A DNA stretch of 64,000 bases from Pelagibacteraceae bacterium AG-345-O09 (GTDB taxonomy: Bacteria; Pseudomonadota; Alphaproteobacteria; Pelagibacterales; Pelagibacteraceae): positions 5,140 to 69,139 of the forward strand of contig QCBC01000005.1 in assembly GCA_003281725.1 (NCBI GenBank). The letters run 5' to 3'. The notes beneath the pieces were generated by a model, which had not been told where the DNA came from, made no database searches, and was given only the letters and a program-made list of their open reading frames with translations. Every line of letters begins with the position of its first letter. Position 1 is the stretch's first letter. The translations under genes were made by a program, and so were the position numbers. Below are positions 33,811 through 45,000 of the stretch, in pieces.

Positions 33811-35554
33811 ATGGAACTAAAAGAGATAAACAGTTTAGTTGAACTTTTTTTTAAGAAATTTGAGGAAAAATTTTCAAATGTTTCTGAAAAAAAAATATGA
33901 AGAGATTTTTTTAATATCTCTTAAAAACAAAGAATATCCAGATACAAAATCTGGACCGTATACTTACTCTTGGGGTAATATTGAAACAAAAATAAAGATT
34001 TTATCAAATTACTTAAATAATATTATTTCAAAAGGTGATAGATGTATTTTATTGTCAGAGAACCGCCCTGAATGGTTAATTTCTGATATAGCAATAATGA
34101 ATGCAGGTGGAGTAACAGTGCCACTTTTTACGACTTATTCTAAAAATGATTACGAATACATTATAAAAGATTGTGAACCAAAAGTATGTATTGTTTCAAA
34201 TATTGATCAATTTAATAAAATTAAAAATTATATTGCAGAAAATACCATTGTTATTTCAATCGATAGATTTGATAAAACAATAGAATTTTTTGAAAATATT
34301 TTTTTGAAAGATAAAGCTAATCTTAAAAAATTAATCGAGTCTGCTGATCCTTATAATAATAATTTAAAAAGAAATGATTTAGCTTGCATAATTTATACAT
34401 CTGGGACTACAGGAAACCCAAAGGGAGTAATGCTTAGTCATGGAGGAATTTTGTCAAATTGTGAGGGAGCACAAGAAATTTTAAAATCATTAATTAAAAA
34501 AGATCCTCCAGTTTTCCTAACTTGGCTTCCCTTATCTCACTCATATGAACATACTGTTCAATATGTTCAAATATTACTTGGAGCAAAAGTCTTTTACGCT
34601 GAAAGTTTAGAAAAATTATTACCTAATATGGCTGTTGCAAAACCTACCATCATGACCGCGGTGCCAAGATTTTATCAAAACTTATATACTAAAATTTCCT
34701 TAAATTTCTTAAATCAAAAAGGAGTTAAGAAATTTCTTATAACCAATACTATTATACTTGGGACTAAAATATTGAATAAAAAACCACTTAGTTTTAAACA
34801 AAATTTAATCAATTTTTTTTGTGAGAAATTAGTAAGAAAAAAAATCAAAAAACAGTTTGGTGGTAAACTTAGGGCTTTTGTTTCAGGCGGGGGTGCTTTG
34901 GATCAAAAAATTGGTGAATTTTTAAATTCTATAGGATTACCAACTTTACAAGGATATGGGCTAACAGAGACCTCTCCAGTTGTAAGCTGTAATATTCCAG
35001 GAGAAATCAAAATTGAGACAGTTGGGCCACCTTTTAAAACAAATCAAGTAAAAATTGCTTATGATGGTGAAATTTTGGTTAAAGGAGAAAATGTTATGCT
35101 TGGTTATTGGAAAATGAAAAAGGAAACAGAGAATATTATCAAAAATGGTTGGTTACACACAGGAGATATAGGTGAGATAACTAAAGAGGGAAATTTGAAG
35201 ATAACTGATAGAAAGAAAGAAATTATTGTTAATTTAGGTGGTGAGAACATTTCACCTTCTAAAATTGAAAATTTATTATGTCTTAATGAAAAAATTAAAC
35301 AAAGTTTTGTTTATGGAGATAAAAAAAACTATCTTGTTTCTTTAATTGTAAGTGAAACTGAAGAAAATAAAAAAGAAATTGAGTTTTATTTAGAAACTTT
35401 AAATAGAACTTTGTCTATAGTAGAAAAAATTAAAAAATTTAAATTAATTAAAGAAGAATTTACAATTGAAAATGGAATGTTAACACCGACTTTAAAACTA
35501 AAAAGAAAAAAAATTTTAGAAAAATATAAAGAAGATTTAGAAAAACTTTATTAA
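33811..35554 (+). CDS. fadD: Long-chain fatty acid-CoA ligase; likely N-terminus offset by an apparent +1 frameshift at A9 (33887-33895)
   Basis: YTSGTTGNPKG, GYGLTETSP, WLHTGDIG, LTPTLKLKR; ATG 33811 gives MELKEINSLVELFFKK, which joins the main frame if the run is A8. Confidence 0.85.
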
Positions 35555-35671: not shown

Positions 35672-35746
35672 TTGACATAACGTGTATAAAAAAATAAAAA
35701 TAAGGTATCAGCGAATCGTTTTGATTCGTTTAACTAAAAAAGGGAG
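35672..35746 (+). promoter_or_regulatory. Promoter, 5' hairpin and SD for the basic micropeptide
   Basis: TTGACA (35672)-N17-TAAAAA; GCGAATC-GTTTT-GATTCGT hairpin at 35711-35729; AGGGAG at 35741-35746. Confidence 0.6.
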
Positions 35747-35752
35747 CTAAAG

Positions 35753-35830
35753 ATGCCTAAGAGAAGAAAAAAAGCAAAGAAGGCTAAGAAAAAAGCTAAG
35801 AAAAAAGCTAAAAAAAGAAGAAGAAGATAG
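35753..35830 (+). CDS. 25-aa Lys/Arg/Ala-rich basic micropeptide (not in ORF track)
   Basis: MPKRRKKAKKAKKKAKKKAKKRRRR; SD 6 nt upstream, own promoter-like elements and terminator. Confidence 0.75.
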   Translation: MPKRRKKAKKAKKKAKKKAKKRRRR

Positions 35831-35849
35831 TAACTTAGTATTCTTTATT

Positions 35850-35893
35850 AAAAACGCTTCTCATAACGATTTCGTGTGAGAGGCGTTTTTTTT
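35850..35893. terminator. Bidirectional intrinsic terminator
   Basis: AAAAACGCTTCTCA-N13-TGAGAGGCGTTTTTTTT between the converging micropeptide and carD. Confidence 0.85.
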
Positions 35894-36731
35894 ACTCCTC
35901 TAAAGCAACTTCATTGTCAGTTGTAGTCTCTTGCACAGGTAATTCTGAAGTGGTTTGTTTTGAAGTCTCAGTATTTGGCTGCGGTTGTGAAGCTATATTT
36001 CTTTTTAAAGCTTTATCTAATTTTTTTTGAGTATCTTCTAAGGAAACATTTAATATTATTTGAAACTCTGACAATATTCTTTCATAGGCTTTTTCAAATA
36101 ACTGTCTTTCACTGTAAGATTGATCAACCATAAGATCATCACCTTTATTCAAATCTCTTACTACTTCAGCAAGCTCATAAATTTTTCCTGAAGAAATTTT
36201 TGCCTCATATTCTTGGGCCCTTCTACTCCACATAGATCTTTTAATTTTAGGCTTACTTTTTAAAATGGAAATGCACTTATTAACTTGATTAATTGTTGCT
36301 AATGATCTTAAGTGTGATTGTTTGTTAACTGGAACCATACCATTAGCTTTATCTTTCTCAAATTTAATTACATATGTTTCAACATCGATCCCACCTATAT
36401 TTATTTTTTTAAATTCACTTATTTGCCCAACACCATGTTTAGGATAAACAATATAATCTTTTATTTTATACTCTCGTTTCTCTGAATCTTGTTTTTTTAC
36501 TTTTTTAATTTCTGGCTTTGTTTCATTATTTTTAGGAATTCTTAGATTTTCAGTTTTTGCCTCAGTATTTTTTTTAATTACTGACTTTTTAATTTTAGAA
36601 TTAGTAATTTTTTTTCTTAATTTTTTTTTGGTTTTAGTAACTTTTTTTGGAGCTACCTTTTTTTTTGCTTTTTTTGATTTTTTTTTATTAAATGTTTTCT
36701 TTAAAATATTTTTCAAACTTATTTTGCTCAT
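35892..36731 (-). CDS. carD: CarD-family transcription factor with Lys-rich N-terminal extension and acidic tail
   Basis: [42 protein letters not shown]; follows fdxA as in other alphaproteobacteria; exact start uncertain. Confidence 0.9.
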
Positions 36732-37014
36732 CTTTATATTTTTCATGATCCGCAGGGGGATCTTTTTTTTCACTTATATTTGGCCAGATTTCAGAATATT
36801 TTTTATTGATTTCTAACCATTGTTCACTCCCCTTTTCCGTGTCGGCCTTAATGGCATCAACAGGGCACTCTGGTTCACAAACGCCACAATCTATACACTC
36901 ATCAGGTTTAATTACAAGCATATTTTTTCCTTCGTAAAAGCAATCAACTGGACAAACTTCAACACAATCCATCAATTTACATTTTATACATTTATCATTA
37001 ACTATATAAGTCAT
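36688..37014 (-). CDS. fdxA: 7Fe/8Fe ferredoxin FdxA
   Basis: [18 protein letters not shown] and [12 protein letters not shown]. Confidence 0.95.
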
Positions 37015-42064: not shown

Positions 42065-45000
42065 ATGACTGAAAAATTATTAGTTCCTGATATTGGAGAA
42101 TTTGAAGGTGTTGAAGTAATAGAAATTTTAGTTCAAGAGGGTCAAGAAATAAAAAAAAATGATCCAATAGTTACAATTGAAAGTGACAAATCTAGTGTAG
42201 AAATTCCATCAACTATTGAGGGTAAAATAGAAACAGTTAATGTAAAAATTGGGGATAAAGTTTCAAAAGGTGATTTATTACTTACGACAACAGGGACAAA
42301 AATTTCTACAAAAACAGCAGAGGACGTACCCAAAAATACTGAAAATTTAATAAAAGAAGCTGAAAATTCATTAAAAAAATCTCAAGAAGAAATAATTGAA
42401 AAGCCTGTAGCTCAAAGTCAAGAAACCACAAATAAAATTTTAATAAAAGAAGAAAATAAAACTGATAATATTCAAGTTGTTAACAAAGGTGATATTGATC
42501 CAACTGAAACAAATGAGTGGTTAGAATCTTTGTCTGCAGTAATTCAAAAAGATGGGAATCAAAGGGCTCATTATTTAATAAAGGAGTTAATAAATAAAGC
42601 CTATAGAGAAGGCGCAAATATTCCTTATACGCAAAATACCCCTTATATAAATACTATACCAGTCAGTGAGGAACAAAAATCTAATGGAGATCAAAATATA
42701 GAAAGAAGAATTAGATCTTTGATTAGATGGAATGCTGCAGCTATGGTAGTAAGAGCTAATAAAAAGTTTCCTGAACTTGGTGGTCACATAGGTACATTTG
42801 CTTCAGCGGCAACTCTTTATGATGTGGGTATGAATCATTTTTGGAGAGCGAAGAATAATAAATTTGGAGGGGACTTAGTTTATTTTCAAGGTCATAGTGC
42901 TCCAGGTATGTATGCAAGAGCTTTTTTAGAGGGAAGACTTAGTGAAAAACAATTGGATAGTTTTAGGCAAGAAGTGAATCCTGGAGGTTTATCTTCTTAT
43001 CCTCATCCTTGGTTAATGCCAAAATTTTGGCAATTTCCCACTGTCTCAATGGGTTTAGGTCCAATGTTAGCAATCTACCAAGCAAGATATATGAAATATC
43101 TGATCAACAGGGGCCTTATTAAAGATGAAGGAAGAAAAGTTTGGGCTTTTTTAGGAGATGGTGAGATGGATGAACCGGAGTCTTTAGGTGCTATTGGTTT
43201 AGCATCAAGAGAAAAATTAGATAATTTAATTTTTGTAGTCAATTGTAATTTACAAAGATTGGATGGTCCAGTTAGAGGTAATGGAAAAATAATTCAAGAA
43301 TTAGAAGGAATTTTTAGAGGTGCTGGTTGGAATGTGATTAAAGTTATTTGGGGATCTTATTGGGACTCATTATTAGCAAATGATAAGTCAGGCCATCTTG
43401 TTAAGATAATGAATGAAACAGTCGATGGAGAATACCAAGCGATAAAAGCAAGAGATGGTGCTTTTGTTAGAGAAAAATTTTTTGGGAAATATCCAGAGAC
43501 AGAAAAATTAGTTTCAAGTTTATCTGACAAAGATATTTGGAGACTAAATAGAGGTGGTCATGATCCCCATAAAGTTTTTGCTGCATATGATAAAGCTTCA
43601 AAAAATATTGGAAGCCCAACAGTTGTAATTGCTAAAACAATAAAAGGTTATGGGATGGGTAAAAGTGGAGAAAGTGTTAACACTACGCATCAAACAAAAA
43701 AATTAGATATTGATGATTTAATGTACTATAGAGATAGGTTTGATGTTCCATTGACAGATGATCAAGTAAAAAATATTGAATATTATAAACCTGATACTAG
43801 TTCAGCTGAGATTAAATATCTAAAAGAAAGAAGACTTCAACTTGGTGGATTTATTCCTGAGAGGACAACTTATGCTAAATCTATAAAAGCACCACCTAAA
43901 AATATTTTTGATAATATGAAAGAATCTACCGGTAAAAAGGAGATGTCTACTACAATGGCGTTAGTAAGAATGCTTACAAGTTTACTTAGGGATAAAAATG
44001 TTGCACCAAGACTGGTTCCAATTATTCCCGATGAAGCTCGAACATTTGGTATGGAGGGTTTTTTTCAAAAGGTTGGAATATATGCTCATGAGGGCCAAAA
44101 GTATGAACCTGAAGATGCTGCTCAACTAAGTTCTTACAAAGAAGAAAAAAGTGGTCAAGTATTAGAAGAGGGAATTACTGAAGCAGGAGCCATGTCTTCT
44201 TGGATAGCTGCAGGAACTTCCTACACAAATCATGATTTAGAAATGATACCCATATATCTATTTTATTCTATGTTTGGTTTCCAAAGAATTGGAGATTTTG
44301 CTTGGGCAGGAGCTGACAGTCAATCGAGAGGTTTTTTAATTGGTGCTACAGCTGGAAGAACAACATTAGCTGGAGAGGGACTGCAACATCAAGATGGCCA
44401 CAGTCATTTGATGGCATCAACAATACCAAACTGTATTTCTTATGATCCAACATTCCATTATGAGTTAGCAGTAATTTTTAGGGAAGGTTTAAAAAGGATG
44501 CATGAAAAAAATGAAAATATTTTTTATTATATTACTACAATGAATGAAAATTATTCCCACCCAGAAATGCCAAAAGATAAAAATTGTGAGGAGGGAATTC
44601 TCAAAGGTATGTACAAAATCAAAGAGTTTAATAAACATAAAAAAAATAAAATTCAGTTTTTAGGCTCTGGTACAATTTTAAGAGAAATGATTGCGGGTGC
44701 TGAAATATTACAAAAAGAATATAATATAGATAGTGAAGTTTGGAGTGTTACAAGTTTTAATGAATTAAGAAAAGATGGACTAGAGGTAGAAAGATATAAT
44801 CTTTTAAATCCTGATAAAGATCAAAAAAAATCGTACGTTGAAAAATGTTTAGAAAAAACAGAGGGACCAATATTAGCAGCTTCAGACTATATGAGAATGA
44901 ATTCTGATCAGATAAGACCATATATAAATAAAAGCTTTTATTCTTTAGGAACAGACGGGTTTGGAAGAAGTGATACGAGAAAAAATTTAAGAAAATTTTT

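Follow-up and report, generated by a model that had tools for sequence, protein, structure and literature searches.

A conserved mini-gene for a short histone H1-tail-like peptide in SAR11 bacteria, and an unlinked rhtB hairpin RNA as its candidate repressor

The closest described relative of the system reported here is the HctA/IhtA pair of Chlamydia, which, like the SAR11 pair, combines a highly basic histone H1-like protein (HctA, or Hc1) with a small RNA encoded at a separate locus (PMC4355289). According to the same account, a loop of IhtA covers the start codon of hctA and would repress its translation, and the pairing predicted in SAR11 covers the start codon too; it takes in 18 - 22 nt over both the Shine-Dalgarno sequence (SD) and the AUG, whereas IhtA is described as pairing over some 7 nt, at the AUG but not the SD (PMC4355289). 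The two systems also differ in that the SAR11 peptide measures 21 to 50 amino acids (aa) in the family analyzed and does not match the Hc1 family, that the chlamydial RNA IhtA is unrelated, and that the SAR11 host, unlike Chlamydia, is free-living with no known developmental cycle. Neither the peptide described below nor three of its longer orthologs matched an Hc1 or Hc2 profile in Pfam or NCBIfam. H1-like proteins of the Hc2 type (PF07382) do carry K/A/P repeats as the peptide does, and the 40 - 91 aa forms of a second SAR11 family contain AAPKKK. The tails of AlgP and HupB are other examples of bacterial H1-like K/A/P-repeat proteins. Unlike in Hc2, AlgP and HupB, the repeat makes up the whole protein in SAR11 and has Arg-rich ends.

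In the marine plankton, SAR11 bacteria are described as outnumbering all other heterotrophs; their transcription regulators are few, and a reliance on control at the RNA level has been hypothesized (PMC13198564). The rhtB motif (Rfam RF01814) was regarded as weakly supported by Meyer et al. in 2009, whose description names neither a target nor a function (PMC2704228). This was the only paper found in our literature search on the rhtB motif or RF01814 in Pelagibacter, and a search on the peptide or on pairing of the rhtB RNA with its start found none, subscription papers lying largely outside the scope of both.

We analyzed a stretch of 64,000 nucleotides from Pelagibacteraceae bacterium AG-345-O09 (hereafter the window; its assembly is G000) together with orthologous loci from two SAR11 families. 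The features considered are listed here, in window coordinates unless a contig is named.

33839-35554, + strand: fadD-like long-chain acyl-CoA ligase, upstream neighbor (PF00501)
35672-35677, + strand: -35 hexamer TTGACA of the predicted promoter (TTGAC within 130 nt upstream in 95/97 orthologs)
35695-35700, + strand: -10 hexamer TAAAAA, without a T at -7 (TA...A in 56/57 same-genus loci)
35711-35729, + strand: leader hairpin of the mini-gene, read from the sequence
35712-35718, - strand: GcrA-type box CGATTCG (fits YGAKTCK; a GAWTC site) in the 5' hairpin arm (CGAATC[AG] in 94/97 orthologs)
35722-35728, + strand: second GAWTC box, TGATTCG, in the 3' hairpin arm (kept in 56/58 same-genus loci)
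35741-35746, + strand: SD of the mini-gene, AGGGAG, read from the sequence
35742-35763, + strand: predicted binding site of the rhtB RNA (20 Watson-Crick pairs, 1 G.U pair, 1 mismatch)
35753-35830, + strand: mini-gene ORF for a 25-aa H1-tail-like K/R/A polycation, from sequence and orthologs
35850-35893, + strand: intrinsic terminator, likely bidirectional and common to carD, from folding (GCG plus T-run in 96/97 orthologs)
35892-36773, - strand: CarD/CdnL with a Lys-rich N-terminal tail, convergent neighbor (PF02559, PF21095)
G000 contig C6, about 44648-44702, + strand: rhtB RNA hairpin (RF01814, 81.9 bits)

The promoter hexamers, hairpin, SD, ORF and terminator named in a preliminary description of this DNA are all found at these positions, and the approximately 340 bp which it saw spent on the locus correspond to a fadD-carD spacer of 337 bp. 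The mini-gene faces carD at all loci that the search with CarD retrieved. Its two promoter hexamers are 17 nt apart, with a predicted transcription start at approx. 35707. The earlier picture of a self-contained transcription unit needs qualification: the hexamers are in place and the terminator is strong (-23.1 kcal/mol, z = -5.5, 0/200 shuffles as good), but the -10 hexamer lacks the -7 T and the terminator, which overlaps the carD stop codon, is probably common to the mini-gene and convergent carD. Among orthologs, the terminator folds more strongly in the sense than in the antisense direction; a simple terminator scan did not call the one at 35850-35893. As the terminator is followed by a convergent gene, we rejected an attenuator reading. 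In Rhodobacter, CarD activates promoters without a -7 T, and the missing T is described as a trait of activator-dependent alphaproteobacterial promoters (PMC7703639); because of its -10 hexamer, the mini-gene promoter is likely to be activator-dependent (on CarD or GcrA) and not strong. Two smaller observations concern the flanks, i.e., the spacer 3' of the mini-gene stop codon is able to pair with the coding region (35790-35850), which may represent mRNA structure, and CarD carries a Lys-rich N-terminal extension of ~100 aa and an acidic C-terminal tail, its domains beginning at residue 102.

The window peptide contains 13 Lys, 6 Arg, 4 Ala and 1 Pro, so that 19 of 25 residues are Lys or Arg, and no acidic residue. 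Of 103 loci, which cover two SAR11 families and 16 genera, 99 contain an intact ORF (97 loci passing the ORF filter plus G039, with a 91-aa ORF, and G162); a first DNA search of 61 genomes had given 30 loci, of which 28 held the complete ORF and 2 were truncated at contig ends, and further loci were fetched around CarD_C in additional genomes. Three of the four remaining loci stop at contig edges. Frame-breaking indels, which the preliminary description had named as evidence against a coding gene, are absent from the 99 intact loci and occur once, in G068, where one extra A (+1) in a homopolymer run causes a frameshift. Peptide lengths range from 21 to 91 aa (21 - 36 aa within the genus of the window, reaching 50 aa in its family, and 40 - 91 aa in the second family) with almost only K, R, A, T and P, and the 97 scored loci encode 61 distinct peptides whose length changes solely in-frame. 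In the window's family, 2,290 of 2,441 residues are K, A or R and none is acidic (K 1399, A 446, R 445, T 90, P 40, G 13, S 5, V 1, X 2). Synonymous codons vary at the same time, with AGA, AGG, CGT and CGA for Arg (including AGA/CGT swaps), AAA and AAG for Lys and GCN codons for Ala all in use. An origin of the ORF as a slippage repeat was rejected.

When the bases of the ORF were shuffled 100,000 times, a stop-free peptide restricted to K, R, A, T, P, G and S arose only once. The assembly has 1,402 short starts with an SD in front, only three of which belong to short basic ORFs, the mini-gene being the most basic of them. With ATG, SD, frame and composition kept in 99/103 loci, the proposal of an unannotated protein-coding mini-gene is well supported, and the sequence comparisons make it very likely that it is a real, translated gene. 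The claim that trypsin would destroy the product also stands, as the longest predicted tryptic piece has 3 residues. Three peptide versions tested were absent from a collection of 15 billion proteins; the window peptide had no match in Pfam, NCBIfam or PDB (PDB chains at E up to 10), nor did three longer orthologs in Pfam at E up to 10. An Atlas search returned unnamed clusters only, and in the nearest named cluster 23% of the members have PF07382 (score 0.89), which we treat as a lead only. In the second family, a conserved acidic-hydrophobic head of 8 residues precedes the basic repeats (L093-L096, L103-L108) and is possibly a degron or binding tag.

Both arms of the leader hairpin contain a GAWTC site that fits the consensus reported for GcrA (TGATTCG/YGAKTCK; PMC4647560). 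Counted from the predicted start, the boxes lie near +8 and +18, and GcrA boxes are reported within +5 to +30 (PMC9976885). The SAR11 mini-gene thus resembles the GcrA/CcrM-activated promoters described in Caulobacter, where PmipZ likewise has two boxes; unlike in those promoters, the box doubles as an arm of an RNA hairpin, and GcrA binding is a prediction here. CGAATC[AG] lies 37 - 42 nt from the start of the -35 hexamer in all scored loci but one, and two of the three loci without it are truncated. The second box has been lost in genera g5, g6, g7, g12, g14, g16, g17 and g19. Despite this drift of the 3' arm, the hairpin (at most -3 kcal/mol) forms in 95/95 loci, closed in some genera by a G.U pair; therefore both the structure and one exact sequence have been kept. 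It is also the sole CGANTC-N3-9-GANTCG palindrome in the assembly. GcrA was found in 55 of 61 genomes, and G000 encodes a CcrM-like methylase (581.8 bits, below the equivalog cut-off of 830). GAWTC has an observed/expected ratio of 0.53 in the assembly vs. 1.32 for GASTC, and GAWTC depletion has already been reported for SAR11 (PMC8919816). Overall, a box within range of the predicted start and both proteins are present, as in a GcrA/CcrM regulon, and these sequence features tip the balance slightly towards control of the mini-gene by GcrA and methylation.

The candidate partner RNA is the RF01814 hairpin of G000, which scores well above the gathering cut-off (81.9 vs. 55 bits) and adjoins a LysE/RhtB gene on its upstream side in the rhtB/DUF2805 context; it is a member of the motif as described by Meyer et al., on the same strand and in the same context (PMC2704228). 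It lies on contig C6 and the mini-gene on C5, i.e., the two are unlinked. Its predicted site spans the SD, the spacer, the AUG and codons 2 - 4 of the mini-gene, and the stretch from SD to ATG is invariant within the window's genus, which is unusual. The pairing tolerates, in the window's own clade, an Ala-to-Pro change of codon 2 that introduces a mismatch. The mini-gene start is the longest exact complement (14 nt) of the rhtB RNA in the assembly and ranks first among 921 crude ORF start regions (-29.3 kcal/mol vs. -21.6 kcal/mol for the next). Net binding to it amounts to -16.9 kcal/mol, as compared to a mean of -0.6 (sd 1.4) in a control set of 306 start regions that includes the target itself and in which no other region reached this value. 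Raw duplex energy alone is unspecific, because three genomic windows outscored the target when the whole genome was scanned regardless of start sites.

RF01814 was detected in 27/36 draft and 30/30 near-complete genomes of the window's genus and in the single genome of g18, as compared to 0/119 genomes of other genera of the family. An extended -10 element (TGnTAnnnT) is found 5 - 9 nt upstream of the hairpin in 55 of 57 copies and on the opposite strand in none of the 57, and a conserved -35-like word precedes it by 16 - 17 nt. All five one-sided stem changes give G.U pairs on the antisense strand, the other changes being compensatory. No Hfq (PF17209) was found in six genomes (G000, G013, G166, G071, G063 and G037, five of them at least 98% complete), where the control was positive; this fits the long RNA pairing. 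On the strand opposite the rhtB RNA (L031, about 1050-1085, - strand), we observed an SD-ATG with a 7-codon ORF, the last residues of which match the end of the neighboring DUF2805 protein.

The predicted pairing is also kept where the start site has changed. In the mini-genes of g12 and g14, 7 of the 11 SD-spacer letters are altered, and a different hairpin restores 6 Watson-Crick pairs and 1 G.U pair. This hairpin, first reached by a pattern search as an intergenic hairpin in G071, is kept in 11/15 g14 and 2/2 g12 genomes tested, has an invariant TAGACA ~35 nt upstream and shows compensation of 6 of the 9 pairs in its outer stem. It had no match in Rfam, and RF01814 gave 0 matches in g12, g14 and g17; the hairpins of these three genera lie outside RF01814 and at another locus. 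Together they make up an uncatalogued structured RNA family beside a conserved membrane-protein gene (L178:1519-1624, - strand; L223:1435-1540, + strand; L317 about 1470-1510, + strand). A model built from 13 g12/g14 copies matched 17 of 151 genomes, 13 of them being the training set, and gave a new match in g17, with an E of only 0.038, at the same, syntenic gene position. The g17 hairpin forms 16 contiguous pairs with the further-changed start of its own genus (-31.2 kcal/mol vs. -12 to -24 kcal/mol for other genera).

Among 59 cognate pairs (47 from g1, 1 from g18, 9 from g14 and 2 from g12), 18 - 22 of 24 positions are paired, and the mean duplex energy is -31 to -35 kcal/mol for cognate vs. 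-18 to -26 kcal/mol for g1-g12/g14 cross combinations; as related genomes are not independent, this co-variation represents about three independent start-site types and not 59 events. A g1-like second copy in G157 (6% contamination) had been dropped from this set. The exceptions to the cognate rule are G064 and one of the two G157 copies. In G064, the hairpin is of the g12 type and the start of the g1 type (-26.9 kcal/mol); this genome is likely a mixed bin, because its carD locus is g1-like, with CarD closer to g1, while the neighbors of its hairpin are g12-like (L102, L312). The mini-gene is present twice in G157, and the 5' half of one copy is of the g1 type (L207, L216). In G162, used as a prediction, one mismatch remains and the duplex reaches -33.5 kcal/mol; this genome gives no co-variation, because the hairpin differs while the target does not.

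Using both models, a partner RNA was found in 0/24 genomes of g5, 0/12 of g6, 0/31 of g7, 0/17 of g16 and 0/8 of g19, where the mini-gene is present, and in the second family 0/24 had RF01814 above the Rfam cut-off and the mini-gene is kept. Second-family pattern matches, including a weak 30.5-bit RF01814 place in G056, fell inside the coding sequences of glnA and rpsD and were rejected. Pattern searches in g5, g6, g7, g10, g16 and g19 yielded only the mini-gene itself, coding matches or other start sites, and none of 61 matches examined, 11 of which lay outside long ORFs, was a hairpin partner. In G083 (g14, 99% complete) the mini-gene is present and the hairpin was not found. As these genera keep the gene, RNA control is either not universal or was missed there. 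As in trans-encoded base-pairing RNAs, the hairpin is encoded away from its target (C6 vs. C5 in G000) and shows conserved complementarity with compensatory change. These data suggest that the hairpin RNA very probably pairs in trans with the mini-gene start in vivo, and repression is the probable outcome.

A candidate second target in the window's genus is hupA (HU family), the start of which ranks 3/921 for the rhtB RNA in G000. The hupA leader, AAAACCGGAGCTAAA, is complementary to that portion of the RNA which does not pair with the mini-gene. By a strict pattern, the site was present in 29/33 same-genus and 0/20 other hupA loci; conversely, a GAWTC box was present in 12/20 other-genus and 0/33 same-genus hupA leaders, i.e., the leaders split by lineage between an RNA-complementary site and a GAWTC/GcrA-type box (L319:789-1064, - strand; L321-L376). 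No compensatory change was found at the hupA site, the variants in G098, G201 and G207 not being compensatory; G075 has the RNA and no site (-11.6), pairing is weak in G007 (-12.9), and part of the site motif is common to hupA leaders of other genera. From the sequence data, the chances that HU mRNA is a second target of the rhtB RNA are about even.

Taken together, we lean, if only just, towards a conserved gene for an H1-tail-like, DNA-coating peptide that is repressed by an unlinked, Hfq-independent rhtB hairpin RNA. A promoter-like site, leader hairpin, SD, frame and terminator are kept in both SAR11 families. GcrA, reading a CcrM-methylated GAWTC box, would turn on the promoter lacking the -7 T and would so tie transcription of the mini-gene to the replication state. 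An RNA of ~50 nt made from its own promoter would then pair over 18 - 22 nt with the translation start, the complementarity and co-variation being visible in the genomes, and would block 30S loading and keep the peptide low until the RNA falls. A weaker step is that in the window's genus the same RNA would also act on the hupA start, so that both DNA-binding proteins would move together. By its composition and by analogy, the released peptide would bind DNA without sequence preference and condense or silence the nucleoid, as HctA does in Chlamydia. The complete scheme, a minimal chromatin switch in which a methylation-read promoter times the peptide, one RNA represses both peptide and HU, loss of the RNA remodels the nucleoid and lineages have rebuilt or rewired that RNA, is put forward as a tentative proposal that is rather unlikely to hold in all its parts.

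The pairing provides a candidate target for the rhtB motif, a structured RNA without a function since 2009; its counterpart in three other genera is an uncatalogued RNA, the sequence of which changes together with the target. The mini-gene itself is of a kind missed by annotation and tryptic proteomics, and its product, should it condense DNA, would count as a very small nucleoid protein. The logic of HctA/IhtA would then, if the reading is true, have been reinvented independently in a free-living cell. The system also offers a concrete, testable case of RNA-level control in SAR11, for which the natural cross-genus swaps are a ready compensatory set.

Other explanations concern the peptide or the RNA. 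With the same gene and the same antisense control, the peptide could serve as a general polyanion counter-ion or RNA chaperone (for RNA or polyphosphate, or as a polyamine substitute). Only charge and K/A periodicity are conserved over lengths of 21 - 91 aa, as would suit such a binder, and HctA is described as binding DNA or RNA (PMC4355289); the regulatory features common to the mini-gene and hupA, however, point to the nucleoid, and we regard a general polyanion binder as unlikely. DNA coating, argued from composition and analogy, is somewhat favored as the main job of the peptide.

A role as a small ribosomal or ribosome-hibernation protein that fills an rRNA pocket, akin to bS22/eL41/mS38 or bL37, is improbable. 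Those proteins resemble the peptide in size, basic charge and being easily missed by annotation (bL37 has 24 aa and bS22 33 aa; PMC10081302), and the CarD-type promoter without a -7 T is typical of Rhodobacter rRNA promoters (PMC7703639). They differ in that, as described, their sequence or domain is conserved (PF08213) and they occupy a fixed site, whereas neither a PF08213-type sequence nor a fixed length was found for the SAR11 peptide. Ribosome association, the other function offered in the preliminary description, is thus disfavored because the length varies from 21 to 91 aa, the repeats are shuffled and no family (Pfam, NCBIfam) or PDB structure matches; a fourfold length variation with repeat shuffling is unfit for a fixed pocket. 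Moreover, the same assembly contains a different, non-repetitive basic ORF of 27 aa (59% K/R) with an SD-like site on contig C3 (L149:1531-1614, + strand), between metC-like and membrane-protein genes, which has no Pfam match and is unnamed in the protein collection. This ORF, which we take to resemble bS22-type small ribosomal proteins, is a better ribosomal candidate than the mini-gene. By analogy, nucleoid compaction is more likely than a ribosomal role for the peptide, and the candidate second target, hupA, is the main reason for preferring DNA over the ribosome as its ligand.

An account in which the RNA is the active part without pairing to mRNA, with the hairpin acting in cis on rhtB, as its leader or terminator, or serving on the sense strand as a decoy for a start-region-binding protein, is more doubtful still. 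Meyer et al. weighed regulatory, terminator or inverted-repeat roles for the motif (PMC2704228). In genomes of the window's genus, only a few bases separate the hairpin from the rhtB gene downstream, and a U tail is mostly missing. As just 13/57 copies have at least 4 T after the hairpin, the 3' limit of the RNA is uncertain and the RNA could be the rhtB leader; the start of the rhtB ORF just past the hairpin with no SD between (L031:1106, + strand) likewise means that the RNA may also serve as the rhtB leader. Against this account, the next gene downstream of the g12, g14 and g17 hairpins is on the opposite strand and the upstream gene in g12 points away, the antisense strand is the one that fits the promoter motifs and G.U changes, and the hairpin sequence tracks the start site of each genus.

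Type I toxin-antitoxin systems are marked by a linked or overlapping antitoxin, a hydrophobic toxin and a patchy distribution, none of which is found for the mini-gene and the rhtB RNA. Growth arrest by a toxic polycation with an antisense antitoxin is therefore the least probable account, even with a small protein, an antisense RNA over the SD and the lethality of HctA expression in E. coli, rescued by IhtA (PMC4355289), since the gene is single-copy at one fixed core position in two families, the RNA is unlinked, the peptide lacks a hydrophobic segment and in several genera the gene is present without a detectable partner.

In 13 RNA runs from 8 studies, 33 - 42% of the words of the mini-gene locus were present. 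Contigs from two of four runs peak over the rhtB hairpin, i.e., X3 (about 830 - 1100, vs. 26 - 58 in the flanks and 300 in a conserved coding stretch) and X14 (42 vs. 3.5 - 14.5 in the flanks), and those of X2 and X8 do not cover it; as contig depth sums strains on conserved words, and gives no strand, ends or level, these peaks were not counted as support. Finally, an 18-nt core of the mini-gene start occurs in three viral contigs of IMG/VR, which we took as chance: in each of these unrelated, GC-rich contigs (L298-L300), the SD-ATG word forms the start region of an unrelated gene that is capsid-like and encodes 371 aa.
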